Shown: in pieces, positions 8,437-56,086 of the stretch
Layout: every line of letters begins with the position of its first letter
How positions within the stretch are numbered: position 1 is the stretch's first letter
Assembly: GCA_018660465.1 (NCBI GenBank)
Contig: JABJKH010000041.1
Location: 6,650-70,649 of the forward strand
Origin: Rhodospirillaceae bacterium
GTDB lineage: Bacteria; Pseudomonadota; Alphaproteobacteria; Rhodospirillales; JABJKH01
Direction: 5' to 3'
DNA: 64,000 bases
Translations under genes and position numbers: made by a program
Notes under the pieces: generated by a model
Database searches by the model: none
What the model was told of the DNA's origin: nothing
Seen by the model: the letters and a program-made list of their open reading frames with translations, nothing else

Positions 8437-11400
8437 ATGAAAGACGACGACACAAAAAATTTTGAGATTCTAGAGAACAGCCCTATGGGCGTTGCCGTCG
8501 TCTCTCATGCGGATACAGACACCCGCCTGACCGGCGAACGATTGTTCATTAATGACGCACTCGTCAAAATGTATGGGGCAACATCACGCGAGAACTTCCA
8601 GAACGCTGAAATCGCTAAAAGTTGGGTTGACCTCAAACAGTTACGCGCTGTTGAGGAGGTTATGAAAAGGCGCGAAGACCTCGTTGATTTCGAGGCACGT
8701 CAGCGGCGGATCGATGGAACGGAGTGGTGGGTTTCAATGAATTCGCGCCCGATCCAATTTGGTGGCCGCGATTGCACCATGATCTGGCATTTCGATATCA
8801 CGCGTCGAAAGCAGGCGGAGTTAGACTTACAAAAATCACGCGACGAAGTGCAGATGCGTGTGGAGAAACGTTTCAGCTCCCTCTTGGATGGCTCAAACCA
8901 AGGTATTCTTATCCATCGCAATCGGGTCCCCTTATACGCCAATCCAATGTTGGCGGAAATGTATGGGTATTCGTCTCCAGAAGAAATTATGGCATTGGAG
9001 TCTACGGAAGTATTGACCCACCCATCGTATGAACGGGGCACTCACGAACTCAGAATTAACGGAGAGGACGTCGCAGCGGACTTCCAAACCAAAGGTCTGC
9101 GAAAAGACGGTTCGGAGTTTTGGGAGGAGCGCCGGTCATTTACCTTGGATTGGGAAGGTGAACCTGCTGTTTGTTCTATGCGATTAGACATCACCAAAAA
9201 GAAAGAGACCGAAGATCAGTTTTATAATGCGGTTCAAAGTTTATCGGAAGGCTTCGCATATTTTAATTCGGACGATCACCTGGTTATCTGGAACGAACAG
9301 TTTAGAAAGCGTCACTTCGGGCAAAACAAAACCCTTGAACCTGGAATCAGCTTTGAGGATTTATTCCGCGACAGGGTTGCTTCAGGGCTCGTTCCCAGCG
9401 CAGCCGGACGAGAAGAAGACTTTATCAAAGAGCGCATGGAACACCACAACAACCCCGGAGAACCGTTCATTAATATGCACGCCGACGGCACATGCATTTT
9501 GATTAATGAAGAAAAAACACCAGATGGGGGAACCGTCTTTACATCACACGACATAACCGATCAGAGAAATACCGAAGAGGCCATGCGGGTAAGTGAGGCG
9601 CGCCTCAAAAACATTCTCGATAATTCTCCAACACCTATATATTTCAAAGATACAGAAAGCCGAATCCAACTCGTTAATCGACAATTTGAAGAAACTTACG
9701 GTGTTCGCTGGGAAGATATTAAGGGAAAATCACCGGTGGATATGTATCCAGGTGAAAAAGGAGAACGGTTCCTCGAATTTGATATGGAGGTCCTAAAACA
9801 ACAAGAAACAATTAAGCAGGAAGAAGAAATTGACGGCAAAACATACGCCACTTCAAAGTTTCCAGTCTTTGACATTGATGGCGAACTCATTGGATTGGGC
9901 GGTGTTGAAATGGACATCACCGAACGCAAGCAAGCAGAGAAAAAAGTTCAAGACAGTGAGGCGCAATTTAGGGCGTTCATCGAGAACAGTCCGGCGCGGA
10001 TCATCTTAAAAGATACAAACCAGCGATATCTTCTCGCTAACAAAGCCTACACCGACGTTTTTGGTCGCAACGAAGAAGAGTTTGTCGGGAAAAAGTCAAG
10101 TGAACTTTCCTGGGTTTCAAAGGAAGCCGTCGAAACCAATGAACAAGCTGATGGTAAGGTACTTGAACACGGGGAAACTATTAGACTTGAAAGAGTAAAC
10201 GACCCCGGAGAGATCACAGAGAGTCACTGGAATATCACGAAGTTTCCGGTTGCAAATGAGTTAGGTGAGATTACCGGTATCGGCGGGATCGCGATCGATG
10301 TTACGGAAAAGAAAAAGGCCGAGCTATTACTTCAGCTTAGTGAAAATCGCTTTCGGGACTATGGCACGATTGCCTCTGACTGGTTCTGGGAAATGGATAA
10401 GAACCTGCGGTTTAGCTATTTTTCGAATCGGTTTGCCGACATCAGCGGCATTTCGCCCAACGATCTTCTTGGCAAAACCCGTCGCGACTCGGGTCTTGAT
10501 GGGAATGATGACGCCGTTATGCAGAATATAGCGGACTTGAAAGCGCATCGCCCCTTTAGGGACTTTGAACATTCCAGAACCTTACCCGACGGACACACTG
10601 TCTATATGTCGACGTCAGGCGTGCCTGTTTTTGATGCCGACGGTGAATTTCAAGGGTACAGAGGAACAGGACGAGATGTCACGGAGCAGAAGGTTGCTGA
10701 AATCGTGCTCGATCAAGCGAAGCAAGAGGCCGATGAAGCCAACCGCGCGAAGTCTGACTTTTTATCCTCCATGAGCCACGAACTCCGCACACCCCTAAAT
10801 GCAATTTTAGGCTTTAGTCAGTTGTTGGCAACAGACCCAGACTCGCCCTTGTCAGAAGCCCAGAAAATATCCTTGAATTATATTTCCAAGGGCGGTCATC
10901 ACCTTTTAGTTTTGATCGATGATGTGCTCGACCTGGCGAAGATCGAGTCAGGAAAGGTAGAGTATTCAATTGAGGATGTAGTCGTAGATCGTGTTTATAA
11001 AGACTGCCTGCCCCTTGTCGACGTAAAAGCCAAGGAACGAGGCATCACAATTACTTCCAATTCATCGGCCTCGGAAAAATTGGTTGTCCGCGCCGATCAC
11101 ACCCGCTTCAAGCAAATTTTTCTAAACCTTCTGTCGAACGCGGTTAAATACAATAAAAAGAATGGCACGGTATCGGTCTCTTTTGATCGCACGCCCGAAG
11201 GCATGTTGCGCACGAGCATCCAAGATACAGGCATTGGCATTTCGAAAAAGAACCACAAGGAATTATTCAAACCGTTCAATCGCCTCGGCCAAGAAACAAC
11301 GGAAACCGAAGGAACCGGAATTGGCTTGGTTGTAACCAAACAGCTGGTCACGGAAATGGGCGGCAACATTGGCTTCGAAAGCAAAGCCCACAAGGGAAGC

Positions 11401-11918: not shown

Positions 11919-12365
11919 CTAACTTAAATCCTCCAACACCTCGTCCGGATGCTGCTCCGGATCAGGCTTGGTGTAAGTCTTTACCACCTTCCCATCCGGC
12001 CCGATGAGCACAGATGCCCGTGTGGCCTTTTCCTGATCCGCCGTTTCAGCCGCACCATAGGCCATGGCAATAGATCGGTCAGCGTCACATAGAAGCTCCG
12101 CCGTCACGTCCATTTCATCTGCCCAGGTTTTCAGGTCTTCGGGCGTACTGAAGGTAATGCCGACGACTTCTGTGTTCTTGTCTTTAAGGTCTTGGATTCT
12201 ATCACGGAACCCTTTTACTTCCTTCGTTCACCCGCCGCCAAAGGCACGGGGGAAGAACCAGACCAGCACGTTTTTTCCTGCGTAATCAGCTAAGCTTACG
12301 TTTTCCCCATCCTGGTTGGGCAAATTAAAGCCAAGCGCGTCACTTCCAATTTCCGGTAGAGCCAT
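11919..12365 (-). CDS. Bcp/AhpC-TSA peroxiredoxin, predicted selenoprotein (in-frame TGA at 12228-12230 replaces the peroxidatic Cys)
   Basis: The ATG at 12365 opens a frame continuous with the listed 64-aa ORF except for one TGA. The joined product reads ...KNVLVWFFPRAFGGG-U-TKEVKGF...VVGITF..., which matches the Prx FYPKA.TPGCT.E active-site context. Confidence 0.8.
12194..12212 (-). promoter_or_regulatory. Candidate bacterial SECIS hairpin for the peroxiredoxin TGA
   Basis: On the minus-strand RNA the hairpin is GGGUUC-CGUGAUA-GAAUCC: a 6-bp stem with one G-U pair and a 7-nt loop containing GU. It starts 15 nt after the UGA. Confidence 0.35.
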
Positions 12366-12507
12366 CGAATCCTCCTAACTATTTTGCCTTGAATACTAGG
12401 CACTGGACCTAAGTGAAACCAGCCCAAATGTTTTTTGGGAAAAAGGCCCTAAACAGGACCCACTCATCCTTTTTTTCTATCCATCCTTGTTCTAGAATGT
12501 CCTGGCA

Positions 12508-13147: not shown

Positions 13148-14344
13148 ATGAAACTAGCTGAAACGCAATGGCCCGTTGTCTGGGTCGCCTTTGGGGCAGG
13201 CATCATTGCCGCGTCGCACATTGGCAAGCTGCCCCCTGCCCTGCCACAAATCAGCACCGAACTGGAAACAGGCCTGGTCCTTTCTGGCTGGATTGCGTCG
13301 ATGATTTCAACCATGGGATTTGCCCTGGGCCTCGTCGCCGGAGCCCTTGCCGACCGGCTGGGTCAACGGCGGGTCCTGATTTTTGGGCTGATGATGCTAA
13401 CGGCGGGAAGCCTCCTCGGTGCTTTCGCCGAATCCAGCACAATGATGCTGGTGGCGCGGTTTATCGAAGGGCTTGGGTTTACCGCGACCACCATTACCGG
13501 CGGCGCGATCATCGCACGGGCCACCATCGACCAAGACCGAAAATTTGCACTGGGCGTCTGGGCGGCCTATATGCCGATTGGTTTTGCCTGCATGATGATG
13601 TTCGCAGCGCTTATTCTGGATAGCTATGGCTGGCGGGTGTTATGGGGCGTCAGTGCCGCCCTGTCGTTAATTTGGACCGTCATTGTTCTGCGCTCGACGG
13701 CGACATGGCAGTTGAGCCAAATCCGCGCCGTTAATCGAGATTCGATCCTTGGTAATGTGAAGCGCTGTCTGTCCAAGGGTGGTGGCGTCTTGGTGGCTTT
13801 GTGCTTTGGGGTCTATGCGAGCCAGCATATTTCAATGATGAATTGGCTGCCCACCTATATGCTGGAAGTCTACGGCGTCAGCACCCTGATTGCCGCAACC
13901 GTGCCAGCCCTGGTGCTGGCCTTTAACGCGGTTGGAAGCCTCGTCGCCGCCCGCGCCATGGGTCGCGGTTGTCCCATCTGGTTGCTGCTGAGCATCGGTG
14001 CCAGCGGCATGGCGGTGACAGAGATCGGTATTTTCTCCGGCGTGTTACCGGATAGCGTCCGACTCGGCTTGGCATTTATATTTGGCATCTGCGGTGGATT
14101 GATTCCCGCGTCCGCCCTTGCCGCCCCGCCAGTCTACGCACCGACCCCGGCGCTGATTGGGACCATGGGTGGGTTGATGGTCACGGGCACCAACACCGGC
14201 CAGTTGTTTGGCCCCCCTGCCCTCGCCGCCGTCCGCGAAGCCGCCGGTAATTGGGACGGCACACTCTGGCTTCTACTTAGTTTAGCGATTGCGGGGATCG
14301 TCATGGCGTTGCTCTCCCGCCCTCTGGAAAAGCGTGCGTCCTAG
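13148..14344 (+). CDS. MFS transporter
   Basis: 398-aa protein with about 12 hydrophobic segments. It has the MFS loop motif ALADRLGQRRVL between TM2 and TM3. Confidence 0.75.
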   Translation: MKLAETQWPVVWVAFGAGIIAASHIGKLPPALPQISTELETGLVLSGWIASMISTMGFALGLVAGALADRLGQRRVLIFGLMMLTAGSLLGAFAESSTMMLVARFIEGLGFTATTITGGAIIARATIDQDRKFALGVWAAYMPIGFACMMMFAALILDSYGWRVLWGVSAALSLIWTVIVLRSTATWQLSQIRAVNRDSILGNVKRCLSKGGGVLVALCFGVYASQHISMMNWLPTYMLEVYGVSTLIAATVPALVLAFNAVGSLVAARAMGRGCPIWLLLSIGASGMAVTEIGIFSGVLPDSVRLGLAFIFGICGGLIPASALAAPPVYAPTPALIGTMGGLMVTGTNTGQLFGPPALAAVREAAGNWDGTLWLLLSLAIAGIVMALLSRPLEKRAS

Positions 14345-15546
14345 GTTAGTTTCCGCGCGTGCGCCAACAAACGATCAACATCGTCTTCATCATTATAAAG
14401 GTGAAGTGCCAGTCGGATCATGCCGCGGCGGATGGTGTGGATGAAGCCACCTTGAGACAGGTGATCTGATAAACGGCTGATCATCGGGTCTTCGGCTGTA
14501 TCGTGACCTTCGGCACCAAGGTTGCCAATACAAACGATGCTGGCAGTTTGTGGTCCGGCAGGGCCGCCTGGCACCGGCAGACCGAGTCCCAAAAGCCCAT
14601 CGATCAATCGGGCAGCGAGTCCCCCAACATGGGTTTCGATGGTCTGCGTGCCGACACGGTTGAGGATGTCCAAGGTCTTTTCTGCGACAACGACGCCGGG
14701 GTAGTTATAGTTGCCGAGATCAAACCGCCCGGCCGCCGGCATTAAGCGATAGTCCTCTGCTCCAAAGGCGGCTTCATGGGCACCGCCGCCCAGATCGACA
14801 CCGAACCGTGCGAGGTATGCGGGTGTCAGGCGCTCCGCCCATTCGGCACGGCAATACAAAAAACCCATGCCATAGAGCCCGCAGAGGCCTTTTTGAGTCG
14901 ATACCGCAAGGCCATCAACACCAAGCGCCATTACGTCGGTATCCAATATGCCTAACGATTGCACTGCATCGACAAGCAGAAAGATTCCGCGTTCGCGACA
15001 GATCTTTCCGACGGCGGCAACATCGGCGCGAAAGCCCGGCGAGAAGGTCACCGTCGGCATTGTTACAAGCCGCGTTTTCTCATCAATGGCATCGATCAAA
15101 AGTTCTGCATCAATGTGCCCTTCCCGGTGTGGCACGGAACGGACTGAAATGTCCTCGCGCTTGCGTTGGTTAAGCCAGGGATAGACGTTATTGGGGTGTT
15201 CCATCTCCAGGCAAACGACGGCGTTTTCGCCGGCCTGCCAATCAAACGCTGCCGCGATCATGTTCAGCCCTTCGGAAACGTTCTTCGTAAAGGCCACTTC
15301 ATTGGCATCGCTGTTGATCAATTTGGCGAAGGCGCGGCGCGTATCCTCTACAGTTGCGAACAACGCATCCTTATCTGTCAGCCCTGATTGCAGTCCCTCT
15401 AGATGCACGTCCAACGCCGCGCGCGCTGGGCTCGGCAACAGCCCCCGTGTACACGTGCTAAAATACGTCGTCGCTTCGTCCTTGAGGAACAGGGCCTGAG
15501 CGTCCTTCAGGGAGAGTTTTTCCGATGGAAGTGAAATTTTATTCAT
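14341..15546 (-). CDS. Class V aminotransferase-fold PLP enzyme (cysteine desulfurase / selenocysteine lyase-like superfamily)
   Basis: The translation has the class V pattern, including DAVQSLG and a VSTQKGL Lys region. I chose the start at the internal ATG 15546 (MNKISLP...), because the upstream extension looks non-coding. Confidence 0.7.
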   Translation of the reverse strand: MNKISLPSEKLSLKDAQALFLKDEATTYFSTCTRGLLPSPARAALDVHLEGLQSGLTDKDALFATVEDTRRAFAKLINSDANEVAFTKNVSEGLNMIAAAFDWQAGENAVVCLEMEHPNNVYPWLNQRKREDISVRSVPHREGHIDAELLIDAIDEKTRLVTMPTVTFSPGFRADVAAVGKICRERGIFLLVDAVQSLGILDTDVMALGVDGLAVSTQKGLCGLYGMGFLYCRAEWAERLTPAYLARFGVDLGGGAHEAAFGAEDYRLMPAAGRFDLGNYNYPGVVVAEKTLDILNRVGTQTIETHVGGLAARLIDGLLGLGLPVPGGPAGPQTASIVCIGNLGAEGHDTAEDPMISRLSDHLSQGGFIHTIRRGMIRLALHLYNDEDDVDRLLAHARKLT

Positions 15547-15840
15547 GATCCGACCGCACTTTTGGGATGGTTTCAATACTGGAGGCGACAAATTTACACG
15601 AGATATCGCCTCAGCAAAAGTCAGAATACCTCCTCCCGGCAAGGCGTGACGGACATCACATACCGTCCCCTCTAAATTATGCATACTCGCTGCCACGGTG
15701 GGAAATCTTAAGCCATATCGTAAGTCTCACATTTTTTGCTTCACCGATTTTACGGTTTGCAAACGTGTTAAATTTTTGATTTTTTACTCCCATCCAATTT
15801 ATCGAAGACAAAATTTGAATTAAGCATTTTAGAGGACCCA

Positions 15841-16083
15841 ATGAACGTAAATACACCCAAGCAAAACGGAATCGCAGATGAACTCGCCGCTCAAGAAGCC
15901 ATGGAGCGCGAAGAAAGAGACCGCAAGCGCCGCATGCAAATTCGCCGACGACAGAAGCTGGCGGAAGAACATAACAATAGAGAGAAAAATCGAACCCTTT
16001 CCGCCGTCACCAAGGCTTCCTTCTGGCTTCTTATCATCGGCGGTGGCGTTATCGGGATCGGTTGGACGATCGCGTCGCTTTAA
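15841..16083 (+). CDS. Hypothetical small protein with charged N-terminal half and a C-terminal transmembrane helix
   Basis: 80-aa ORF with a KR/E-rich coiled segment followed by FWLLIIGGGVIGIGWTIASL. No family was recognised and the call is weak. Confidence 0.3.
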   Translation: MNVNTPKQNGIADELAAQEAMEREERDRKRRMQIRRRQKLAEEHNNREKNRTLSAVTKASFWLLIIGGGVIGIGWTIASL

Positions 16084-16109
16084 TCGCAACAACACGTGTC
16101 GTTGTCTAT

Positions 16110-16365
16110 CTACGACGCCCCCAAGAATACTGAGTGCACGAAAGCGTTCCCGCCAACTCAACACCGCGGACGCACTTAGATCCGTGACATTCTTATCGAA
16201 CAATCGTTCCTGATAACAATAAGACGCGACCAAGCACCCTGGATGCCCTGTGGGCAGGTCAGCCATCATTTCCGGCAGCAGCTTCAGCCAAATGAGAAAG
16301 CCGTGTAGCGGGTCCTCGTTCAGTTCGTTGGCGCGATCAAAACGCCGCAGCAGATTCTCGGCCAA
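16110..16365 (-). pseudogene. Remnant of a TetR-family regulator (C-terminal ligand-binding domain only)
   Basis: The first ~85 residues of ORF 15829-16365 (LLRRFDRANELNEDPLHGFLIWLKLLPEMMADLPTGHPGCLVASYCYQERLF...) resemble a TetR C-terminal domain. No HTH-encoding N-terminus precedes it and the remainder of the ORF looks like noise. Confidence 0.35.
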
Positions 16366-21258: not shown

Positions 21259-21975
21259 ATGAATACTCCTGATATGAGCAGCGCCATTCAGCGCGGCATG
21301 CAAAAGCAATTTTCCCTGCGTCAGAAACAGATTAACCAAGGCGAAAGAAGGGTGGGTTGGAAGGCCGCATTTGGCGCGCCACAAGCACTCGAAAAATTCG
21401 GTATATCTGCGCCGCTTGTTGGGTTTTTGACAGACAAGACCCTGATGCAGGACGGCACAACGCTGGTGCAGGCCGACTACGCGAAGCCAGCGCTTGAGCC
21501 TGAAATCGCAATCCATATGGGAGCTGGCGTTTCACCGGGTGCCAGCCTGGCCGAAGCCAAGGCAGCCATTCGCGGGTTGGGTCCAGCTATTGAGTTGGCA
21601 GATGTCACCTTCCCACCCGATGACCCAGAAGAAATTCTAGCCCACAATATTTATCACCGCGGCCTGATCTTAGGTGATTGCGATACACGCTTTGCCGGTG
21701 GTGAAGTTTCGGGCCTAACCGGAATTTTGACCTGTAATGGAAACATCGTCATCGATACGTCTGATGTCGAAGCGATGACCGGGCGGCTTGGTGAAATCGT
21801 GCGCCATTTCGCAAATTTTCTCGCACCATTTGGCGGTACGATTGAAACAGGCGATGTCATTATCGCGGGTTCGTTGATCCCACCCTACTGGGTCGATCAG
21901 CCATTGGAATTTTCCTATGAACTGACTCCCATTGGACGACTTCAGGTGCTGTTCGACGCGGAGCAAGAAATCTAA
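21259..21975 (+). CDS. 2-keto-4-pentenoate hydratase-like / FAH-superfamily hydratase-decarboxylase
   Basis: 238 aa. GWKAAFG, EPEIA and related stretches resemble the MhpD/HpcG hydratase family. It starts directly after the cupin gene's stop. Confidence 0.55.
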   Translation: MNTPDMSSAIQRGMQKQFSLRQKQINQGERRVGWKAAFGAPQALEKFGISAPLVGFLTDKTLMQDGTTLVQADYAKPALEPEIAIHMGAGVSPGASLAEAKAAIRGLGPAIELADVTFPPDDPEEILAHNIYHRGLILGDCDTRFAGGEVSGLTGILTCNGNIVIDTSDVEAMTGRLGEIVRHFANFLAPFGGTIETGDVIIAGSLIPPYWVDQPLEFSYELTPIGRLQVLFDAEQEI

Positions 21976-27314: not shown

Positions 27315-28061
27315 CTACTTCGGCAAAAATGGCTTGAATTGACTTCTTGTGCGACCGCCTTTCCCGAGGCCGCCCGGTCGGTCCAGACTGGGTCGGTCTA
27401 GGCTGGGTCGATCTAGGCTGGGTCGGTCCACGCTGGGTCGGTCTAGGGGACGGGCAATGGGGCTGGGCTTCTCTTCGGTTCGTTGACCTGGCGCAAGATG
27501 CACCGTCCCAATTGGGGAAGCTTCTGCAGAAACCTTCTTCGAAGGGTTCCAGGAGGCGACGGTGACGGCTTTGCCTTCTTGGGTGCGCATGAGCTTAGGC
27601 TTCACGACTTGGTCTACGGCAGGGGTATTGTCGGCGCGGGTAAACGACAACATCATCTCATCCAAGGTGATCTCACTCCGCTTACCGACTTTAATCGCCT
27701 TCTTAAACGCCAGCGTTCCGTTGCAGAGTTTATTCAATCGGTCTGCTGACATGTTGCCGAAACGCCGCCAAATGTTCTCAAGAAAGCTTTCCACATCAAT
27801 CGGCAGGAACAATTCGGCTTCTATATTGGGCCGTCCACGGGTGAAGGCGCGATAGATGTTAGGCTCCAACGGCCCGACTTCTTCGGCAATAAACACGGCA
27901 GGCATTAATTTTTGGCCCTCATAAGCCACAGCAAAATAGGCCTGCGCCAAAAACAAAAGCCGGTGCAGCTTTTGGGGTTGCAGGTACTCGTTATTTTCCA
28001 GCGCCGTGTCGCTGAACCAAAACGCAATATCAAAACTGGAATCAACAGCAGACCGCATCAA
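27315..28061 (-). CDS. Panacea/DUF4065 (GepA/SocA-like) domain protein with C-terminal (L/V)DRPS pentapeptide repeats
   Basis: The N-terminal region ...LQPQKLHRLLFLAQAYFAVAY... resembles the DUF4065 antitoxin-type domain. The C-terminus reads PLDRPSVDRPSLDRPSLDRPSLDRPGG. Confidence 0.6.
   Translation of the reverse strand: MMRSAVDSSFDIAFWFSDTALENNEYLQPQKLHRLLFLAQAYFAVAYEGQKLMPAVFIAEEVGPLEPNIYRAFTRGRPNIEAELFLPIDVESFLENIWRRFGNMSADRLNKLCNGTLAFKKAIKVGKRSEITLDEMMLSFTRADNTPAVDQVVKPKLMRTQEGKAVTVASWNPSKKVSAEASPIGTVHLAPGQRTEEKPSPIARPLDRPSVDRPSLDRPSLDRPSLDRPGGLGKGGRTRSQFKPFLPK
27376..27450. repeat. 15-bp tandem repeat, about 5 copies (GGTCGGTCYAGRCTG)
   Basis: Read directly from the sequence: ggtcggtccagactg / ggtcggtctaggctg / ggtcgatctaggctg / ggtcggtccacgctg / ggtcggtctagggga. 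It encodes the pentapeptide repeat of the Panacea-domain gene. Confidence 0.9.
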
Positions 28062-28294: not shown

Positions 28295-30619
28295 ATGGTA
28301 GTTGTGCTGGTAAATCGCATGCGAGAATATTTCCGGAACCGGTACAAAGCTACAACGACTGCTATTCGCAGTTGGACCAAGATAGCAAAAAGGAAGATTC
28401 GGGTTGGGTACGCACACCTATGGCATAGGTTTTATTTCATTCGGAGCTGGTTAACTCGCCTGTTATTACGCCACAGCGGGATTGCAATTTTTTCTTTACT
28501 GATCGTTCTTTTCACAATCTCAGCCTTCTGGCTTCCTGAAACTCAAGTGGCGCTTCAACCTAACTTCGCTACAACCGAAAGTCTGGGAAGTTTTAGATCC
28601 TTGATACTCACCATTGGGGGGGCGTTAATAGGAGCGACTGCTATCGCGTTCACTCTCGTCATGTTTGCTATTCAAGTAAATATCGAACGCATGCCTCATG
28701 GATTATTTCGCAAACTAAGCTCAGACCGTTACTTACTCGGTGCATTCGGCATCACATTTTTACTCGCCATCACAATTGCAACACTATCTATGATTCCCGA
28801 CAAGTCTTGGGTCGCCGTCGCTGTTTATGGAACAGTCTGGGGAACCTTTTTGGTTCTGGGCCTGTTCCTTTATGCTTATCGTCGCGCCCTGTCCCTTATT
28901 AATCCCATTCAGCAACTAAACTTCATCGTAGAAGCCACCCAAAAAGATTTTCGGCGCTGGGTACGTAACGCGCAACATGCTGCGCCAATTCTTGAAGAAA
29001 TTAGTAATGAGCACGCCGACCCGACATTAGAGACTCAATCTACTTACGACTTAGAGCGGTTTAAGTATTTTCAAATTAACCCGCACTGGAGCAATCAGGC
29101 GCAAAACGCCATTTTACATGCTATTACTTTTGCTCGACGTTATGCGGAAGATGGTGACTATGAAGTCTCTGGTGCTGCGTTGACGGCAATAGTGGGTATT
29201 AATGCTGGGTATATCGAAGCGAAGGGAAAAACCTTTGTTGCCCAAAACCCTTTGATCAATAATTCACTCTCCACTGACGGATTTATCAACGTAACATTAG
29301 AGCATTTACGACAAAACTTGCACATTGGAGTTGAGCGCGGTGATGAAAACCAAATAGAGCAAACGTTACAGACCATAGCACAACTTGCTAAATTGTATCT
29401 GAGAATTGACTACTCTCAAGAATTCGAAACTAAAACACACGCAAATCTTGCCGCTAGCTACCTTTCCGGGTCAGCAAAATCAATATTGCCAAAGGTCATG
29501 CCTGATGTGCTAATGGAATGGATGCGTCTTATGGGCCAAACTGCGCAACTTTTCATTCTTCAGGCAGATCACAATGATATTAGAACACTGACCGAAAGGA
29601 TTGGCATGATCGCAGGAGCCTGCGCAACCAAAGATGACTACCGCCCAGTTACCCAAGTTGGCGTTGAGCAGTTGACGAATTTAACGAAAAACTTAATCTA
29701 TAGTGAGCACCACGACGTTAGATATGCTTTGGAAGACGTAAAAAGAAACATCAATTTTATTGCAGAATTTTTATTCGCCGTACCTGAGACGCTACTCAAT
29801 AAAGTCCTCAGCACAAATATGGGTCCGTATTATTCAGGAACTACTCCTGATAGTTTTCTTCAATGGCTTACCGACCTTGCCCATGCGCTTTCTGAAAATT
29901 CAACAAGCGATGAACGCTGCCAAAACATTATCCGAAAAATTGAGGAATGGGCTCAGAGTTTATCTAAAACAGAAAAAGAATTATTTCTGTTATCCATCAA
30001 GAATAAATCATTTTTTACATTTGATATCATTCACTGGATTTCCAGTATCACAAAACTTCTTTTGTTTATTTCAAATACTAAGTCTTGTCCTGAGCACACT
30101 CGTGAGGAACTTAAAAAGCACGCACTCTGGCTTGTATCAGTATTGACCTGGATTCCAGATAACAATGAATCCGTGAGGCACGTGGAAAATTTTTCGGTGA
30201 CAGAAATACTTTTTGATGTAGCGTTAGATTCTAACCAACGAGAATTTGAGGAATTTTCCCTGCAAGTTGGCAAAATTCTTTTATCATGGGGCTTCAAGGG
30301 TGGAAAATACGGGTCGGGCTGGGGAACACTAGATAAATCAATATATGGGCTTGCTGCTCTCGCTATTATCAGAAAAGAAAAGGTATTTGGAGAACAACTA
30401 AAAAAAGAAATTTCAAATCGGCAAAACAGTAAGGACGCAGTGGGACAGGAGATATGTGACATCGCCGCTCGAAATATTCGAGATAAGGCTGCAACACTTT
30501 ACCAGCAGGGATATAGCCACTCACGCATTGATAATGTAATGCACTCAATTGACCATGAGCAGTTGGCCCCATTACTCAATGAAATCGCAGATATTCTCTC
30601 GCCGCCCGTCGCGGAATAG
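28295..30619 (+). CDS. Orphan 774-aa protein: N-terminal ~4-TM membrane anchor plus large helical cytoplasmic region, function unknown
   Basis: Long uninterrupted ORF in an AT-rich stretch, with hydrophobic helices within roughly the first 200 aa. I could not find a Walker A, HExxH or other catalytic motif by eye. The start could instead be the ATG at 28319. Confidence 0.6.
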   Translation: MVVVLVNRMREYFRNRYKATTTAIRSWTKIAKRKIRVGYAHLWHRFYFIRSWLTRLLLRHSGIAIFSLLIVLFTISAFWLPETQVALQPNFATTESLGSFRSLILTIGGALIGATAIAFTLVMFAIQVNIERMPHGLFRKLSSDRYLLGAFGITFLLAITIATLSMIPDKSWVAVAVYGTVWGTFLVLGLFLYAYRRALSLINPIQQLNFIVEATQKDFRRWVRNAQHAAPILEEISNEHADPTLETQSTYDLERFKYFQINPHWSNQAQNAILHAITFARRYAEDGDYEVSGAALTAIVGINAGYIEAKGKTFVAQNPLINNSLSTDGFINVTLEHLRQNLHIGVERGDENQIEQTLQTIAQLAKLYLRIDYSQEFETKTHANLAASYLSGSAKSILPKVMPDVLMEWMRLMGQTAQLFILQADHNDIRTLTERIGMIAGACATKDDYRPVTQVGVEQLTNLTKNLIYSEHHDVRYALEDVKRNINFIAEFLFAVPETLLNKVLSTNMGPYYSGTTPDSFLQWLTDLAHALSENSTSDERCQNIIRKIEEWAQSLSKTEKELFLLSIKNKSFFTFDIIHWISSITKLLLFISNTKSCPEHTREELKKHALWLVSVLTWIPDNNESVRHVENFSVTEILFDVALDSNQREFEEFSLQVGKILLSWGFKGGKYGSGWGTLDKSIYGLAALAIIRKEKVFGEQLKKEISNRQNSKDAVGQEICDIAARNIRDKAATLYQQGYSHSRIDNVMHSIDHEQLAPLLNEIADILSPPVAE

Positions 30620-31212: not shown

Positions 31213-31869
31213 CTATTCAGCAGCCGAGTCGGGCGCTAAATCTAAAGCGCGCTCCATCGCCCCTTCGGTGTGGGATATTGGCGTCGTGCCATAGATTTCT
31301 TTTGATTCTTCCTGGCTGACCAGCCGTCCGTCCGGCGAGAACATCGGATAGAAATCCAATGTCCCAAAGAACGTGTGGAAACCAATGTTAACGCCAATGT
31401 AGGTGCCGAGCTCGACAATTTCTTCCGACGAATAATACTTTTTCAAGTCGTCGTAGAACGCTTCGTCGATCTTGTCTAAATCCGACGCCATGTATTCGCT
31501 ATAACGCAGCGCTGCCTTTTCGGCATCGGTAAACCGGTCGCTGGCTTCATAGTTATTGATGCCTTCGTCGATGTCTTCTTCCGTCAATCCTTGCTGCTTC
31601 GCCGAAGCAGACCGCACGTTGCCTCAATAATTACAGACGGCGTGCCGGGACAGTTGGATTCGAATGATCTCTTTTAGCTTGTGATCGACCACGCCGGAAT
31701 TAAACACCGTGCCCCACGCCACATACATGGCTTCGGACAGGTCCGGGTTGTGGCCCTGCATGGCATGGAACGCCGGGTCCGGCGCACGGTGCTTCAGGGC
31801 CTTCTTAATATAAGGCGCAAGCTTGGTCTTATTCAGCTCATCGATATCAAGCATCGAAATATTAGGCAT
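31213..31869 (-). CDS. AhpD-like (carboxymuconolactone decarboxylase family) predicted selenoprotein with C-x-x-U motif (TGA at 31624-31626)
   Basis: ORFs 31624-31869 and 31213-31617 share one frame and are separated only by TGA. The joined sequence is ...LSRHAVCNY-U-GNVRSASAKQQGLTEEDI.... It aligns with the downstream paralog across the stop, and the CxxU sits where AhpD has CxxC. Confidence 0.8.
31594..31610 (-). promoter_or_regulatory. Candidate SECIS hairpin for the AhpD-like TGA
   Basis: On the minus-strand RNA the hairpin is CUGCUUC-GGC-GAAGCAG (perfect 7-bp stem, or 6 bp with a CGGCG loop). It begins 13 nt after the UGA. Confidence 0.4.
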
Positions 31870-38532: not shown

Positions 38533-39285
38533 TCACAGTAACCACAACTTCTTCATCAGTCGCGCCAGTTCTGGGTCATGTTTTTCCAAATCGCGGCGGT
38601 TGTAGGGGTAGTGGTCGTTTTGTCCGAAGTAGGCTTCGGTGCCTTCGGCAAAGTACTCACGGACGTTGCGCATCGCATAGTGCTTGGCCTTCTTTCCATC
38701 AATGCGATCGACATTATCATAGCTGCCATTGGCGCTGGCCTTTTTATATGCAGCGATAAGTTCCGGATGGTCGTATCCCAGAACCTGTTCGTGGTAGGCA
38801 TGGGACAATTCGTGCAGCAACAACAATGGCGCGCCGTCCTCCGATTGTAAAAAGTAACCACCATCACTGATGGAAATGCCGCCGGCCTTATCCTTGTTGA
38901 TGCCGTTCTTGATCAGCCACGGCCCGGCCTGGGTGTGAAAATAATGAAACTTGAATTCATCAAACTTTTCCCAGCGTGCATCGTGCTGCACCCAGATCGG
39001 AATCAGGCGCAAGAATGTCGTGACATTTGGCGGTACAAGTTTGCTGATTCGAATGAGATCGCGGCGCAATTTCTGCCGCACTCTGGTTGCTAATCTTTTT
39101 CGCTGATAGTGCAGTTCCTTGTTCACCCGAAGGGTCCAACCGGCGATGTTCTCGCTGAGATAGCTGGCGGTCGGTTGAACGCCTTTCGCTTGAGCAAACA
39201 CCGACGATGGCAAGGCTAAAACCGCCACCATGAAAAGCCATAAAATGATTAAGAGCCGCGCCACCTTACTCCACCGGACGAGCAT
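38533..39285 (-). CDS. Secreted putative zinc metallopeptidase (HExxH)
   Basis: Signal-peptide-like N-terminus ending in AQA, and an LLLLHELSHAYHEQ motif. Confidence 0.6.
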   Translation of the reverse strand: MLVRWSKVARLLIILWLFMVAVLALPSSVFAQAKGVQPTASYLSENIAGWTLRVNKELHYQRKRLATRVRQKLRRDLIRISKLVPPNVTTFLRLIPIWVQHDARWEKFDEFKFHYFHTQAGPWLIKNGINKDKAGGISISDGGYFLQSEDGAPLLLLHELSHAYHEQVLGYDHPELIAAYKKASANGSYDNVDRIDGKKAKHYAMRNVREYFAEGTEAYFGQNDHYPYNRRDLEKHDPELARLMKKLWLL

Positions 39286-40099
39286 TGGTGACCTTGGTTA
39301 GGGGCGCTTTATTGTTACTCTGGATGACATCGAAAGCATAACGCCAAGAGACGCCGGGGCCGGTCACGGTCGCTTGGCAGGTGCGAAGTACCTTGATCGC
39401 ATCAAAACTAAGATCCTTATATCCGGAGACGCTAAAACGGCTGATGGTGGTTTTGTCTGGCACCCGGTCGCGGACCGCGATGCGCAGCAACAATCCCGCC
39501 TGCTCGCGGACAATATCATCGGTGCAGGTCGGCAATTCAACAGCACTCCCCTGCCACAACCGCATCCATTGTGCCTGCGCCTCACCCTCGCCCCTAGGGA
39601 TCAACCCCCACCCAAGGGCGGCGATAAAGCCCGCCACCGCGTAGGCGCTCCACGATGTGCCGCCGCGCCTCAGGATCGCGTCTTCGCGTTGCATCTGGGA
39701 AATTGTATCGCCATAGATCTCCTCCAGTTTCTCAACGCTACGAGTCACATAGACATAATTGGCAACCATCGCCAATACGGCAAAGACCAGCGGCGTGCCG
39801 ATGATTGCCACCCGGGGCGAGATCAGCCACAACACCGCCGGCACAAACATCAAACACGCACCGATGGTCGCCATGCGGCGGTAGAAATACCAAGGAACAG
39901 ACAACAAAAACGCCGACCAATTCCATGAAATAAGGCCGCCCAGAAACGCTCCACCGCCGGCAGAAATCTTTTGATATTGGGAGAAATAATAAGTGTCGTT
40001 GCGGCCAAAAAATTGCCGTAGATCTTCTTCGTCCGGCGGGTTCTTTCCCAATCCGCCAACACCATTCGATCTACCGTTCGCACTCACTTCCGCCATCAT
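39266..40099 (-). CDS. DUF2628-like membrane protein with C-terminal soluble domain
   Basis: YYFSQYQKI....WNWSAFLLSVPWYFYRRM is typical of DUF2628 and is followed by additional TMs. The 3' end overlaps the next gene's start by 20 nt. Confidence 0.5.
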   Translation of the reverse strand: MMAEVSANGRSNGVGGLGKNPPDEEDLRQFFGRNDTYYFSQYQKISAGGGAFLGGLISWNWSAFLLSVPWYFYRRMATIGACLMFVPAVLWLISPRVAIIGTPLVFAVLAMVANYVYVTRSVEKLEEIYGDTISQMQREDAILRRGGTSWSAYAVAGFIAALGWGLIPRGEGEAQAQWMRLWQGSAVELPTCTDDIVREQAGLLLRIAVRDRVPDKTTISRFSVSGYKDLSFDAIKVLRTCQATVTGPGVSWRYAFDVIQSNNKAPLTKVTNARPVE

Positions 40100-45190: not shown

Positions 45191-46330
45191 ATGATACAAC
45201 GCCTCCTCCCCTTCCTCCCCTTCGCCATCTGGATCGGTCTCATCCTGTTCAGAGGCAACTTTTGGCGCTCGGATCAAATTACGTCCGGAGAAGCCAAAGA
45301 CTTGGACTCATGGCCCAACGTCACCGCTGTCATACCGGCGCGCAACGAGGCCCCTTCCATCGGGGCGACGGTCGAGACCTTGTTGGCGCAGGATTATCCG
45401 GGCTCCCTCTCAGTCGTAGTCGTTGACGACAACAGCGACGATGGCACGGCAGACGTCGCACGTGCCGCCGCAGGAGATCGGGCAGACAAACTCACGGTCG
45501 TCAGCGGCAAGCCCTTGGAAGCTGGATGGAGCGGTAAGCTGTGGGCCGTAAGCCAAGGCATCGAAGGCGCCACCACGTCCGACTACATTTGGCTGACCGA
45601 TGCCGACATCACGCACACGCCGGGAAACCTGCGCTGGCTGGTGGCCAAGGCGGAGGTAGAAAAACTCGATCTGGTTTCCGAAATGGTCATGCTGCGCTGT
45701 GAAAGCTTTTGGGAGCGCTTGCTGATCCCGGCCTTTATTTTCTTTTTCCAAAAGCTGTATCCCTTCCCCCAGGTTAACAACCCGGACCATGCTGTCGCCG
45801 CAGCCGCCGGCGGTTGTGTATTGGTCAAGCGGAAGGCCTTGGCAGATGCGGGCGGCATTGCCGCGATTAAGGACAAGTTGATCGACGATTGCGCCCTGGC
45901 GGCGATCATCAAGGCTCGCGGGCCGATTTGGTTGGGCCTGACCGAACGCGCGCACAGTTTGCGAGTCTATAATCATTTGAGCGAAATCTGGCACATGGTC
46001 GCCCGCACCGCGTTCGTGCAGTTGGATCATTCGGTCCTGCAACTGATCGGCACCGTCGTCGGCATGGCAATCATTTATCTGGCGGCACCGATCATGGCGA
46101 TCTGGAGCGGCATCACGGGAGATGAACTTTTAGGGCTTGCCGGCGGTGGTGCTTGGCTGGTGATGGCGATCACATTTTTGCCAACGCTGAGACTGTATAA
46201 AATGAACCCAGCCTGGGCGATGGCGTTGCCGCTGGCCGGGTTGATTTATACAGCCATGACCGTTGATTCCGCTCGCCAACATTGGGCCGGGCGCGGCGGG
46301 GCCTGGAAGGGGCGGAGTTATAGTTCTTGA
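45191..46330 (+). CDS. hpnB: Hopene-associated family 2 glycosyltransferase (HpnB-like)
   Basis: N-terminal TM, then the GT2 motifs VIPARNEA and VVVVDDNSDDGT, then C-terminal TMs. It sits inside the hpn cluster. Confidence 0.7.
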   Translation: MIQRLLPFLPFAIWIGLILFRGNFWRSDQITSGEAKDLDSWPNVTAVIPARNEAPSIGATVETLLAQDYPGSLSVVVVDDNSDDGTADVARAAAGDRADKLTVVSGKPLEAGWSGKLWAVSQGIEGATTSDYIWLTDADITHTPGNLRWLVAKAEVEKLDLVSEMVMLRCESFWERLLIPAFIFFFQKLYPFPQVNNPDHAVAAAAGGCVLVKRKALADAGGIAAIKDKLIDDCALAAIIKARGPIWLGLTERAHSLRVYNHLSEIWHMVARTAFVQLDHSVLQLIGTVVGMAIIYLAAPIMAIWSGITGDELLGLAGGGAWLVMAITFLPTLRLYKMNPAWAMALPLAGLIYTAMTVDSARQHWAGRGGAWKGRSYSS

Positions 46331-46370
46331 CCCGTGACGTTCAGTAAAAGGTGGTGTATCCATACTCGTC

Positions 46371-47237
46371 ATGAATGAGATAGCGACAAATACTGAGATC
46401 GAGACTGATCCAGCAGCCCATGCAGAAGAAGTCGTGCGCCGATCTGGCTCATCATTCTTCTGGGCGATGCGGCGCTTACCGACGGAAAAGCGTCAGGCGA
46501 TGTATGCCATCTATGCGTTCTGCCGCGAAGTCGATGACATTGCCGATGATCCGGGCGAGGAAGAAACCAAGCGCTTCCAACTTGGTCAATGGCGCGGTGA
46601 AGTCACCCGCATATTCGCCGAAAGTGCCCGCCTCCCCACGGCCAAAGCCTTGATCCAACCCGTGGAACGCTACAACCTGCCGCAGCAAGATTTCCATGCC
46701 ATGATCGACGGCATGGAGATGGATGCTGGCAACTCTGTGCGCATTGCCAATATGGCTGAGCTGGAACTTTATTGTGACCGGGTCGCGTGCTCGGTTGGGC
46801 GCATGTCGAACATGGTTTTCGGTATTGAAAAAGAATTGGGAGACAAGGTCGCCTTCTCCCTCGGTCAAGCACTGCAACTCACGAACATCCTCCGCGATGT
46901 TGCCGAAGACGCCGAACGCGACCGGCTGTACCTGCCCCAGGATTTGCTCATCGCCCACGGCATCGACAGCACGAACATTGATGAAGTGCTGACCCATCCG
47001 CGCCTGTCGGATGTGTGTGAGCTGTTGGCTGAAGTCGCCAAACGCCGGTTCACGGAATCTCGCGAGCTCTTAGCACAGTGCAACCGCGTTCAAATGCGCC
47101 CGGCGATCATGATGATGGAAGTCTATGATGCGATCATGAAACAGTTGTTTGTGCGTGGCTGGAAAAATATCGATATCCCCGTCAAGCTGAGCAAAGTCAA
47201 GAAGCTGTGGGTCGCCTTCCGCTACGGCATGTTGTAG
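46371..47237 (+). CDS. hpnD: Presqualene diphosphate synthase HpnD (squalene/phytoene synthase family)
   Basis: SSFFWAMR, YAFCREVDDIADDPG and NILRDVAEDAERDRLYLP motifs. Confidence 0.8.
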   Translation: MNEIATNTEIETDPAAHAEEVVRRSGSSFFWAMRRLPTEKRQAMYAIYAFCREVDDIADDPGEEETKRFQLGQWRGEVTRIFAESARLPTAKALIQPVERYNLPQQDFHAMIDGMEMDAGNSVRIANMAELELYCDRVACSVGRMSNMVFGIEKELGDKVAFSLGQALQLTNILRDVAEDAERDRLYLPQDLLIAHGIDSTNIDEVLTHPRLSDVCELLAEVAKRRFTESRELLAQCNRVQMRPAIMMMEVYDAIMKQLFVRGWKNIDIPVKLSKVKKLWVAFRYGML

Positions 47238-47241
47238 CACG

Positions 47242-48489
47242 GTGGCTGGCCATATTCATATCATCGGGGCTGGGGTGGCAGGGCTTTCGTGCGCTGTATC
47301 CCTCACCGAACGAGGCGAGTCTGTAACGCTGTATGAAGCCGCCGGCCACGCCGGTGGGCGGTGTCGTTCCTATGAAGATGCGGCTCTGGGTCGGCGCATC
47401 GACAACGGCAATCACTTGTTGCTGAGTGGTAACAGCTCAGCCATGGCCTACCTGAAAATAATTGGTGCGTCCGATAGCCTGACAGGACCAGAGACGGCAA
47501 GCTATCCTTTCGTCGATTTAAAGTCCGGCGAACGCTGGACCGTGCGCCCCAACAAGGGGGTGCTGCCGTGGTGGGTGTTTTGTGAAAACCGCCGGGTGCC
47601 AGGAACGAATGCCTGGGATTACCTGAAGGCACTGCGTCTGGCACTTGCCGGCAAGAACGACACACTCGCCAAATGCCTCGGCAACAGCGGCCCGCTGTTC
47701 GAGCGGTTTTGGGAACCGTTAGGAGTTGCTGTCCTGAACACCGATGCGAACGAAGCGGCGGCGGCGCTCTTGTGGCCCGTCATGAAAGAAGCTTTTGGCA
47801 AAGGCGAAGACTTCTGCCGCCCGCGCATTGCCCGCGAAGGCTTGAGCGAAAGCTTTGTTGACCCTGCCCTCGCCTATTTGAAGGGGCACGACGCGGACGT
47901 TAATCTCAACACCCGGGTCCGGACAATCACGTTAGACAACGAACGGACAACATCCTTAGACTTGGGCGACAAAACGGTGAGCTTGGACGAAGATGATGTC
48001 TTGGTGCTTGCGGTACCGCCTGCAGTCGCGTCTTCGTTACTGCCCGACCTTACCGTTCCTCTGGAAACCCGGGCGATTGTGAACGGGCATTTTATTTTGG
48101 ACGCGCCCAGAAGTGACGAGCTCAGTTTCATGGGCCTTGTCGGCAGCGTCAGTCAGTGGCTGTTCGTGCGCGGTGAAGTCGCCTCGGTCACGGTCAGCGC
48201 CGCAGATAAGCTGGCCGAACAACCCGCCGAAGAAATTGCCGAGACTCTCTGGAAAGAGGTTGCGAAAGCCCTGGAACTGGGCGATAAGCCCCTTCCGGCG
48301 CACCGCATTGTTAAGGAAAAGCGCGCGACTTTTGCGCAAACGCCGGAAGACGTTTCGAGACGACCAGGCCCTGTTACTGCCTGGTCGAATTTGTTTCTGG
48401 CAGGAGATTGGACCAACACAGGCCTGCCCGCTACCCTTGAAGGGGCGATTAGGTCGGGCCGAATCGCTGCAAATAGAATCACTCAATAA
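47242..48489 (+). CDS. hpnE: Hydroxysqualene dehydroxylase HpnE (FAD-dependent amine-oxidase fold)
   Basis: IIGAGVAGLS dinucleotide-binding motif at the N-terminus and LAGDWT near the C-terminus. Its position between hpnD and shc supports the call. Start codon is GTG. Confidence 0.8.
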   Translation: MAGHIHIIGAGVAGLSCAVSLTERGESVTLYEAAGHAGGRCRSYEDAALGRRIDNGNHLLLSGNSSAMAYLKIIGASDSLTGPETASYPFVDLKSGERWTVRPNKGVLPWWVFCENRRVPGTNAWDYLKALRLALAGKNDTLAKCLGNSGPLFERFWEPLGVAVLNTDANEAAAALLWPVMKEAFGKGEDFCRPRIAREGLSESFVDPALAYLKGHDADVNLNTRVRTITLDNERTTSLDLGDKTVSLDEDDVLVLAVPPAVASSLLPDLTVPLETRAIVNGHFILDAPRSDELSFMGLVGSVSQWLFVRGEVASVTVSAADKLAEQPAEEIAETLWKEVAKALELGDKPLPAHRIVKEKRATFAQTPEDVSRRPGPVTAWSNLFLAGDWTNTGLPATLEGAIRSGRIAANRITQ

Positions 48490-48520
48490 GGCACTAGACT
48501 CTTGACAAACATGGACCTTT

Positions 48521-54868: not shown

Positions 54869-56086
54869 TCAAACGTGTTTCAACATTGCGTTCGGAACGT
54901 AGGCCGTTCGTCCCATTGTTTGCAGGGCCTCGGTCTCATGACCCAGGCACAGTTCCCGCAATTTGATGAACAGCTTTCCGGCAAGGGTTTCTCCGTAATA
55001 CCAATCACTGATTTGAACATCGGAAACACTTCCGGGTTTCGCCATTGCCGCCTGATAATAGAAATATTTCAGATCATCAGCGGTTAGCTTCAACGCACGG
55101 CCAATTGGCTGGCCTTCCATGAAGCTGTCGATGCTCGGGTCGTCAACAAAGCTAACTAGGAAATCGATGATCTCCTCGGGCGAATATTCGGTCAGACCAT
55201 CTAATCTCCGACCCTTAAAGTTCTTGATCGATTCTTCATACCACGGACGCAGCAGGACGACTTCTTGCTTCAAATCCAAGGCGAGTTTTTCTGCATCGCT
55301 TAGATCATTCTGTGGAGCCGCCAAGTTTACCGGGCAGGTCCAGCCTTCCATATCCGCCGGTGGCCCCGGAGGCGCATCGGGGAAATCTTCGATGAACGGC
55401 CCGTCATTGCGTTCGAGCAATTTAAGCGCACCCAACAGGACCCGGCGTTGAAAATCCGGCTCATTCGGCGCGCCAAACGGACGCCCCAGTTCAAACGGTA
55501 CGAACAGTGCCCGCGGTGGACGCAGGCCTTCGGTGTGTTTTCGGATCAAGCTGATTTGCGTCGTCGGCAAACCTTCGCGTTCCAAGTAGTGTGCCAGCCC
55601 GCCCACGGCGCGCGTGCATTGAGGTCAAACGCCAGCGAGGATAACCCCGGTCACGTTGTCACTTTTCAAAAGTCCCGCCAGATCCTTGGAAACAGCAGCA
55701 TGTGCCATCGGCGGTGTCGCCCCCATAAAGGCGTAATGATAGTCGGCAACTTCGCCAACATCGCCACTTGCTGCCAGTTCTCTCAAACGCTCAATCGGGA
55801 AGACAATGTTGAGGTCCTGTTGAAATCCCGTGCGATCAAAGTTGGTGGAAACGTGGCTCATGATCAGATCATCCATATCCGTATCGTTGGGGATGATTCG
55901 GTATTCACCGACACCTGGGGTGAATTCTTTATCTTCGCGGCGGTGCAAACCTGCCGTTGTAATGATCGCGACTTTTCGTTCGTTGAGCGCCGGGCCATCA
56001 GCGCAAGTTGTATCGTCATAATCAGGCAGATCCTGATTGACGATCATGTTGCGCTGCTTTTCCGGCATGTCTGATAAATGGGCCAT
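54869..56086 (-). CDS. GrdB/PrdB-like (glycine/sarcosine/betaine/D-proline reductase selenoprotein B family) predicted selenoprotein, U-x-x-C (TGA at 55625-55627)
   Basis: ORFs 55625-56086 and 54869-55606 are in one frame, and the 18-nt gap has no other stop. The joined sequence is ...NVTGVILAGV-U-PQCTRAVGGLAHYLEREGLPTTQ.... Family-typical stretches VAIITTAGLH, MSHVSTNFDRTGFQQD.N and FPIERLRELA are present. Confidence 0.75.
55592..55618 (-). promoter_or_regulatory. Candidate SECIS stem-loop for the GrdB-like TGA
   Basis: On the minus-strand RNA, UGCACGCGCGCC-GUG-GGCGGGCUGGCA can form an interrupted GC-rich stem of about 11 bp with a GUG apical loop. It starts 6 nt after the UGA. It was folded by eye only. 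Confidence 0.3.

Follow-up and report, generated by a model that had tools for sequence, protein, structure and literature searches.

A stretch of 64,000 nucleotides from a Rhodospirillaceae bacterium (assembly GCA_018660465.1, contig JABJKH010000041.1, positions 6,650 to 70,649; hereafter the window) carries on its minus strand, from 12365 to 11919, what is very probably a single intact gene for a 148-residue selenoprotein resembling the Bcp/PrxQ peroxiredoxins of the AhpC/TSA family. Gene callers split this gene in two because its catalytic selenocysteine (Sec) is encoded by a UGA "stop". A preliminary description of the DNA had proposed a selenocysteine peroxiredoxin (Prx) missed by the calling of open reading frames (ORFs), and this proposal is supported by the orthologs, by the constraint on a hairpin downstream of the UGA, and by the context in the window.

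The catalytic codon and its orthologs

The frame contains one in-frame TGA among its 148 codons, at 12230-12228, which is codon 46, and its start is preceded by a strong Shine-Dalgarno sequence (Table 1). The start at ATG 12365, the joined 148-residue frame, and the single TGA had been described before, and our translation reproduced these coordinates exactly. The failure of ORF calling was also described correctly, as the ORF list of the window holds only two pieces of the gene, one of 45 aa (12228..12365) and one of 64 aa (11919..12113). A similar fate befell the nearest public relative: P0011, from a metagenome-assembled genome (MAG) listed at NCBI as 'Rhodospirillaceae bacterium', is 99% identical to the window protein and carries the annotation of a 92-aa "redoxin domain-containing protein".

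We compared codon 46 across the orthologs of the gene, which form a group that we call clade A. After de-duplication, 64 unique orthologs have TGA at this codon and 5 have TGC, so that the search for Cys- and Sec-containing relatives suggested in the preliminary description returned both kinds. The TGA had been placed at the position of the catalytic Cys, and both the TGC forms and the many TGA forms align with it at the exact codon. None of these 64 TGA and 5 TGC members has TAA or TAG at codon 46 or a frameshift; the orthologs thus do not end or break at this position. Their identity to the window protein is 55-93% over the full length, on both sides of the TGA. Six MAGs of Alphaproteobacteria/Rhodospirillales from a species-representative genome set have the TGA at the exact codon in intact frames, and a metagenome scan contributed 80 further loci; one clade member (L091) is a contig of the AACY series in the Global Ocean Sampling (GOS)/Sargasso data. 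At the equivalent catalytic codon, TGA is also present in two Bcp-like genes of Marinimicrobia.

Protein databases tell the same story from the other side. Full-length homologs of about 148 aa with Cys at position 46 are present (P0002-P0007, P0009, P0012, P0014), and the position also aligns with the Cys of Aeropyrum pernix Bcp (2cx3). Three full-length entries have a 'W' at this position (P0001, P0008, P0010), which is probably the TGA as read by gene calling with genetic code 4. Dozens of C-terminal stubs of about 82 aa start at varied internal M, L or V codons, and the N-terminal stubs all finish with ...FFPRAFGGG. Public sets therefore hold three forms of this protein, namely full-length entries with Trp at the Sec position, C-terminal stubs of 82-92 aa, and N-terminal stubs with spurious upstream extensions (among them P0001, P0008, P0010, P0018, P0019, P0023, P0025, and P0011). 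Judged from the sequences, this pattern is the classic signature of a miscalled selenoprotein, and the comparison as a whole strongly supports the reading of codon 46 as Sec.

The hairpin downstream of the UGA

Within the coding sequence, 15 nt after the UGA, begins a short hairpin that is a candidate selenocysteine insertion sequence (SECIS). It lies exactly where the preliminary description had placed a hairpin with a GU-containing loop, and its sequence is constrained in the TGA forms. In the RNAalifold consensus, a stem of 6 bp closes a loop of 7 nt, 287 of the 288 cells are paired (99.7%), and all substitutions in the stem keep the pairing (G-C to G-U, U-A to U-G, and a single A-U). The block GGGTTC CGTGAT(C/A) GAA(T/C)CC is almost invariant across the 64 TGA forms, also where the codons have four- or six-fold degeneracy, so conserved structure does follow the TGA. 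The entropy at the third positions of codons 52-57 is 0.12, 0, 0, 0.2, 0, and 0 bits, as compared to about 1-1.9 bits in neighboring codons. Arg54 is encoded by CGT in all 64 TGA forms, as compared to 6 different codons for the invariant Arg40 and 4 for Gly69.

In the five TGC forms, the (G/S/A)-F-R-D-R peptide is unchanged, but it is encoded by way of CGC, GAC, and CGC, with which the hairpin cannot be formed and the G-U of the loop is lost. The constraint on the hairpin at the RNA level is thus present only in the TGA forms. The window contains the pattern UGA-N15-GGGTTCCGTGAT once, against an expectation of 0 from 100 shuffles. The pattern was found in 78 of 100 loci, always at the Prx UGA and with a fixed spacer of 15 nt, and these loci include a paralog of the gene (clade B, see below) and one Marinimicrobia gene. 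Like the SECIS of the Escherichia coli fdhF type, the element is a short hairpin inside the ORF just downstream of the UGA, with G-U in the apical loop. It differs from the fdhF SECIS in sequence, in having no evident bulged U in its 6-bp stem, and in its 7-nt loop, and binding of SelB is in this case a prediction.

Fold, active site and clades

Searched with U replaced by C, the window protein matched Pfam AhpC-TSA (PF00578) with E = 5e-31 and 107.6 bits against a gathering cutoff of 26, in agreement with the family previously proposed. The match spans residues 6-129 and covers profile positions 1-123 of 124; the Redoxin profile of Pfam matched with E = 1.6e-22, and both matches lie within residues 6-140. 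The closest solved structure by sequence is the A. pernix Bcp (9.5e-19). As a stand-in for the window protein, the natural Cys ortholog P0005 was modeled with AlphaFold2 (AF2); it is 63% identical and has the PRAYGRGC and LLCD features in common with the window protein. The model reached a pLDDT (predicted local distance difference test) of 96.5, its catalytic residue opens helix 44-55, and its best Foldseek matches were Bcp, BcpB, and PrxQ structures with TM (template modeling) scores of 0.85-0.92. By homology and fold, the protein is a member of the Bcp/PrxQ lineage that lacks one defining feature of the active site, and we describe it as 'Sec-Bcp-like, non-canonical active site'.

What is missing is Thr/Ser in the Pxxx(T/S)xxC motif. 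The active site reads P39-R-A-F-G43-G-G-U46, with Pro and Sec present and Thr/Ser missing. On this point, the preliminary description was inexact, as it quoted the canonical context F-Y-P-K-A-x-T-P-G-C, whereas the actual sequence is F-F-P-R-A-F-G-G-G-U without the Thr. Gly43 is invariant in the 69 unique clade members (65/65 with Sec, 4/4 with Cys). For peroxiredoxins, the Pxxx(T/S)xxC motif has been called 'definitive' (PMC5302317), and a 2026 selenoproteome review describes PxxxTxxU as 'highly conserved ... crucial' (PMC13188914). We found no paper on the PxxxTxxC motif in combination with selenocysteine.

Other parts of the active site are better preserved. Pro39 is kept in 62 of the 65 Sec forms and is Ser in the other 3, and Arg116, which aligns with the Arg of 2cx3, is the same in 69/69 clade members and throughout alignments A1, A3, and A4. 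The exchange of Pro39 to Ser is seen in the Sec forms of loci L056-L058 and L078 (FFSRAFGSN-U-T), in which the canonical Prx active-site residues are reduced to Sec and Arg. The only other Cys of the window protein, Cys93, is kept in 33/65 Sec forms, the others having S, Y, F, Q or H; in the AF2 model of P0005 its position is at the end of strand 90-93. The clade alignment contains no conserved resolving Cys, and a Cys at +5 occurs only in rare members. As Gly43 takes the place of Thr/Ser and a conserved resolving Cys is missing, the protein is to be regarded as a presumptive peroxidase.

These features set the clade apart from the solved Bcp/PrxQ proteins (2cx3, Sulfolobus solfataricus Bcp1 3drn, Mycobacterium tuberculosis BcpB 5epf, and Xanthomonas campestris PrxQ 5ima). 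According to the ortholog model, the fold is the same, and both share the FFP-x-A-F...C-T-K-E context as well as the conserved Arg. However, the solved proteins have Cys as catalytic residue and Ser/Thr at the motif position (P-A-A-F-S-P-V-C in A. pernix) where the clade has Sec and Gly43, and many of them have a resolving Cys at +5 from the peroxidatic Cys or in helix alpha-3.

Among known selenoproteins, the marine Sec-Prx are the most similar in kind. With 43 genes, they ranked second in abundance among known selenoprotein families in the Sargasso Sea (PMC1088965), and they had 253 members in the GOS data (COG1225/pfam00578; PMC2398784), a count that may include G-x-x-U forms. Like these (PMC1088965, PMC2398784), the window protein is of the AhpC/TSA Bcp type with Sec at the peroxidatic position and has widespread Cys homologs; after its UGA comes an in-frame hairpin whose loop contains G, it is found on marine metagenomic contigs of the Alphaproteobacteria type, and it co-occurs with PrdB-like and AhpD-like selenoproteins. 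Unlike the published T-x-x-U motif (PxxxTxxU), the motif of the window protein and its clade is G-x-x-U. The experimentally characterized Sec-peroxiredoxin PrxU of Eubacterium acidaminophilum (Sohling et al. 2001, cited in PMC13188914) is likewise a bacterial peroxiredoxin with Sec as the peroxidatic residue, but it belongs to another Prx subfamily; the PrxU model (NF040737) gave 37.9 bits with the window protein against a cutoff of 270, and residues 13-128 matched its 233-position profile.

The canonical motif is found in a separate group of paralogs, clade B, which reads W-W-Y-P-(R/K)-A-D-T-P-G-U. In at least 8 loci (L032, L042, L043, L045, L079, L084, L087, and L094), a clade B gene is found upstream of the clade A gene at a distance of about 120-145 nt, for example at 1464-1907 and 2034-2480 in L043. 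Both tandem genes carry the identical SECIS core GGGUUCCGUGAUNGAAUCC at equal spacing. The window holds the clade A gene only, without the clade B paralog. Outside the Alphaproteobacteria, the two Marinimicrobia/Neomarinimicrobiota MAGs L006 and L007 each contain, at 10001-10450, a Bcp-like gene whose product is 36-38% identical and whose catalytic codon is TGA (FFPKASTSG-U-T). L007 has the GGGUUCCGUGAU core at matching spacing and reads FFTKA, with Thr replacing the Pro of the motif.

In a rough neighbor-joining tree without bootstrap, clade A was monophyletic, its Cys forms were one group nested among Sec forms, and its sister groups were largely Sec forms. Together with the SECIS core common to Marinimicrobia, the tree suggests that Sec is ancestral in clade A and that a single switch to Cys took place later. 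One may go further and see in clade A a distinct, ancestrally Sec-dependent branch of Bcp/PrxQ that dispensed with the active-site Thr/Ser (P-R-A-F/Y-G-x-x-U). We put this forward tentatively and consider it possible but doubtful. If it were true, either the intrinsic reactivity of Sec would make the Thr unnecessary, or the clade would have moved to another substrate or another chemistry. It could also explain why genomes keep clade A in tandem with a PxxxTxxU paralog, and the few Cys forms would represent a single secondary Sec-to-Cys reversion that is likewise Thr-less.

Selenium use, rival explanations and meaning

The window contains additional signs of selenium use, all of which had been noticed in the preliminary description. 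The selU/mnmH gene, which encodes tRNA 2-selenouridine synthase, was found well above its cutoff (Table 1). SelU requires selenophosphate, which is made by SelD. The neighbors of selU are a gene for a GGDEF diguanylate cyclase and a GrdB-like gene, and no selD is adjacent. Two further genes carry TGA at a Cys position. The GrdB-like frame close to selU was called as two ORFs (153 and 245 aa); its match to Pfam GRDB (PF07355, 7.8e-9) stops directly ahead of the TGA, and about 14 nt past the UGA begins a hairpin that is GC-rich and has a GUG loop, so that the gene probably encodes a PrdB/GrdB-like UxxC selenoprotein. The second frame, which ORF calling had missed, matched Pfam CMD (PF02627) with 1.7e-8 and probably encodes an AhpD-like CxxU selenoprotein; 16 nt past its UGA begins a perfect 7-bp hairpin (CUGCUUC-GGC-GAAGCAG). 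Along with Prx, PrdB-like (UxxC) and AhpD-like (CxxU) proteins count among the marine selenoprotein families of highest abundance (PMC1088965, PMC2398784).

Several observations weigh against a selenocysteine peroxiredoxin. In the 64-kb window, selA, selB, and selD were not found among about 50 ORFs examined with NCBIfam and Pfam, and there are no tRNA genes and thus no tRNA-Sec (selC), so we infer the capacity for Sec decoding rather than reading it from the window. In Alphaproteobacteria, tRNA-Sec genes that are nested within selB have been reported (Mukai 2021, cited in PMC13188914). When the RNA after the TGA was folded, as had been suggested, the hairpin did form, but its stability of about -6 kcal/mol was no better than that of shuffles (z = +0.1 to +0.7), which applied to the regions after the UGA of the Prx gene and of the two other candidates. 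As single-sequence folding is uninformative for such short hairpins, comparative analysis was used instead. In the comparison, the covariation scores of the stem were matched by column shuffles, with one-sided G-C/G-U changes and a single A-U, because the stem barely varies. The case for a SECIS therefore rests on the constraint at synonymous sites and on the contrast between Sec and Cys forms. For this contrast, the control set comprises 5 DNA sequences of Cys forms from GC-richer genomes, and part of their codon differences could be explained by this origin. A lower helix that would extend the hairpin (columns 10-13 with 42-45) was rejected, as it was 72% paired and showed no covariation beyond shuffles. 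Rfam gave no match, neither for the whole window at the gathering threshold nor for the gene at E <= 10. At the protein level, the best NCBIfam equivalog models, Bcp NF006960 (91 bits vs 140) and PrxQ NF053650 (69.6 vs 260), stayed under their cutoffs, and the replacement of the Thr/Ser of the 'definitive' motif by Gly43 makes peroxidase chemistry less certain.

As it was in principle possible that the TGA is simply a defect, we considered a nonsense mutation in an ordinary Cys-Bcp gene, be it in a pseudogene or by an assembly or sequencing error. The split in the ORF list and the public annotation as fragments (P0011, 92 aa) would be expected from such a defect. However, one and the same TGA recurs in unique orthologs from independent assemblies and several lineages, both halves are conserved at the protein level, no other stop codon or frameshift is seen, and the downstream RNA is conserved in TGA forms only. 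The orthologs therefore exclude a pseudogene or an assembly error, and we give this explanation next to no chance. A stop codon that does terminate would yield a 45-residue peptide and a separate, re-initiated C-terminal protein, and gene callers do find internal starts (ATG 12113 in the window; M, L or V in orthologous fragments). Yet these starts vary between orthologs, are at different codons, and have no Shine-Dalgarno sequence. Moreover, neither half is a complete thioredoxin/peroxiredoxin fold, as the AF2 model of P0005 needs residues 14-147, and Arg116 and residue 46 would fall on separate polypeptides. Functional termination is in our view exceedingly improbable. UGA could also be decoded without selenium, by reassignment to Trp or Gly (codes 4/25), by near-cognate read-through, or by insertion of Cys. 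The W at position 46 of P0001, P0008, and P0010, which probably stems from code-4 gene calling, is in line with this, and in other systems Cys is known to be misincorporated at Sec codons when selenium is limiting. On the other hand, TGA terminates 13 of the 52 window genes, and in their approximately 17,000 codons TGA is in frame at 3 sites only as compared to 271 TGG. The standard genetic code of the window thus excludes reassignment. All three TGAs align with a redox Cys and not with Trp or Gly, the SECIS-type element is conserved, and selU shows selenium metabolism, which leaves decoding without selenium very improbable.

A different question is whether a genuine selenoprotein of this kind has to be a peroxidase. 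The Gly-Gly-Gly-Sec clade might perform other redox chemistry on a Prx scaffold, such as thiol-disulfide or selenylsulfide exchange or the reduction of a different electrophile. In favor of this possibility, the Thr/Ser that positions and activates the peroxide is lost from a motif that the literature cited above regards as definitive or crucial, the Gly43 in its place is invariant, and the Bcp/PrxQ scores are under the NCBIfam cutoffs. In addition, in many lineages the clade A gene is directly preceded by a DTPG-U paralog, and this retention of a canonical paralog suggests that the two functions are non-redundant. There are also several known families of 'Prx-like' selenoproteins whose motifs differ (PMC2398784). 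Against it stand the retention of Pro39, Arg116, the Thr47 that follows Sec, and the whole Bcp fold, as well as the location of Sec exactly at the peroxidatic position. A second redox residue in a CxxC-like arrangement is missing, and Cys93 is not conserved. A function other than that of a peroxidase is therefore a serious alternative that we nevertheless consider unlikely.

For the selenocysteine peroxiredoxin, the following sequence of events can be proposed. Sec decoding in bacteria is well established and is the basis of the recoding suggested here. The UGA at codon 46 would be recoded as Sec during translation, with the hairpin in the coding sequence acting as a SECIS that brings SelB·GTP·Sec-tRNA(Sec) to the ribosome halted at this codon. 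In the folded protein, Sec46 would be positioned at the N-terminus of helix alpha-2, at the place of the peroxidatic Cys and opposite the invariant Arg116. Its selenolate would attack the hydroperoxide, and the resulting selenenic acid would be recycled by an external thiol reductant in a '1-Sec' mechanism, for which thioredoxin, glutaredoxin or glutathione are candidates. Such external recycling is most likely because no resolving Cys is conserved in the clade. Alternatively, Cys93 of the window protein could form a transient selenenylsulfide with Sec46.

The surroundings of the gene gave no pointer to a conserved operon partner or a reductant gene, as synteny was limited to near-identical relatives (L021-L023). 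The Prx gene is a single gene flanked by a histidine kinase gene in convergent and a carbonic anhydrase gene in divergent orientation, and a scan for promoters and terminators around it revealed nothing meaningful. At 14341-15696 (minus), 2 kb from the Prx gene, there is a gene for a class-V aminotransferase that is related to SufS/CsdA and to selenocysteine lyase. All its NCBIfam matches were below cutoff, and an N-terminal extension of about 110 residues was unmatched; the gene may have to do with the mobilization of selenium or sulfur. We rejected this gene as a candidate for SelA, as it is SufS/CsdA-like and below all cutoffs. Farther away, at 45191-50623 (plus), the window contains a hopanoid biosynthesis cluster with the hpnB glycosyltransferase (564 bits), hpnE (417 bits), which is the hydroxysqualene dehydroxylase, and squalene-hopene cyclase (762 bits). 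Sizeable ORFs without a family match are located at 28295-30619 (+), 27315-28061 (-), 38533-39285 (-), 39266-40099 (-), 21259-21975 (+), and 15829-16365 (-), one of them with 774 aa. These were mostly compared with Pfam at 1e-6, and 15829-16365 with NCBIfam at 1e-5.

Table 1. Features of the candidate Sec peroxiredoxin gene and of other selenium-related genes in the window.
Feature	Position	Strand	Basis or remark
Coding sequence of the Sec-containing Bcp/PrxQ-like protein (predicted)	11919..12365	minus	Translation: 148 residues (147 standard + U46); stop TAG 11921-11919
Shine-Dalgarno AGGAGG	12371..12376	minus	Direct sequence reading; 5-nt spacer to ATG 12365-12363
UGA codon 46, predicted to be read as Sec	12228..12230	minus	Aligned with the peroxidatic Cys of Bcp/PrxQ
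Candidate bacterial SECIS-type hairpin	12194..12212	minus	Begins 15 nt after the UGA; comparative support
Hairpin stem, GGGUUC / GAAUCC	12212-12207 / 12199-12194	minus	
Hairpin apical loop, CGUGAUA	12206-12200	minus	7 nt, contains GU
Codon 43, Gly (GGC)	12237..12239	minus	Clade alignment; at the Thr/Ser position of the Pxxx(T/S)xxC motif
Codon 93, Cys (TGT)	12087..12089	minus	Only other Cys in the protein; possible, non-conserved resolving residue
Codon 116, Arg (CGG)	12018..12020	minus	Alignments; conserved Prx active-site arginine
CMD/AhpD-family frame, 218 codons	31213-31869, TGA 31624-31626	minus	Context HAVCNY-U-GNV; probable selenoprotein
GrdB/PrdB-family frame, 405 codons	54869-56086, TGA 55625-55627	minus	Context ILAGV-U-PQC; probable selenoprotein
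selU/mnmH (tRNA 2-selenouridine synthase)	56559-57671	minus	473 bits vs cutoff 361

A Sec peroxiredoxin in a marine alphaproteobacterium is already known as a kind, and selenoprotein peroxiredoxins are well documented (PMC1088965, PMC2398784, PMC13188914). In the published accounts that we consulted, supplementary sequence sets aside, we did not see a Thr-less Sec clade that is often paired with a canonical Sec paralog. Beyond confirming that a misannotated gene is a real selenoprotein gene, the analysis adds this clade without the canonical Thr/Ser, often beside a canonical Sec paralog, and a clean demonstration, from Sec versus Cys forms, of the RNA-level constraint on the SECIS. Since the SECIS core extends across two paralogous clades and another phylum, UGA-N15-GGGUUCCGUGAU offers a simple and specific search pattern. 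Because the orthologs are annotated as stubs or with Trp, redox and selenium inventories come out too low for marine Alphaproteobacteria. With a third selenoprotein gene and selU in one 64-kb stretch, the organism appears to be a committed selenium user. If the protein is still a fast peroxidase, it bears on the question of how far Prx catalysis needs Thr/Ser once Sec replaces Cys; if it is not a peroxidase, the family name would be misleading for a widespread marine protein.

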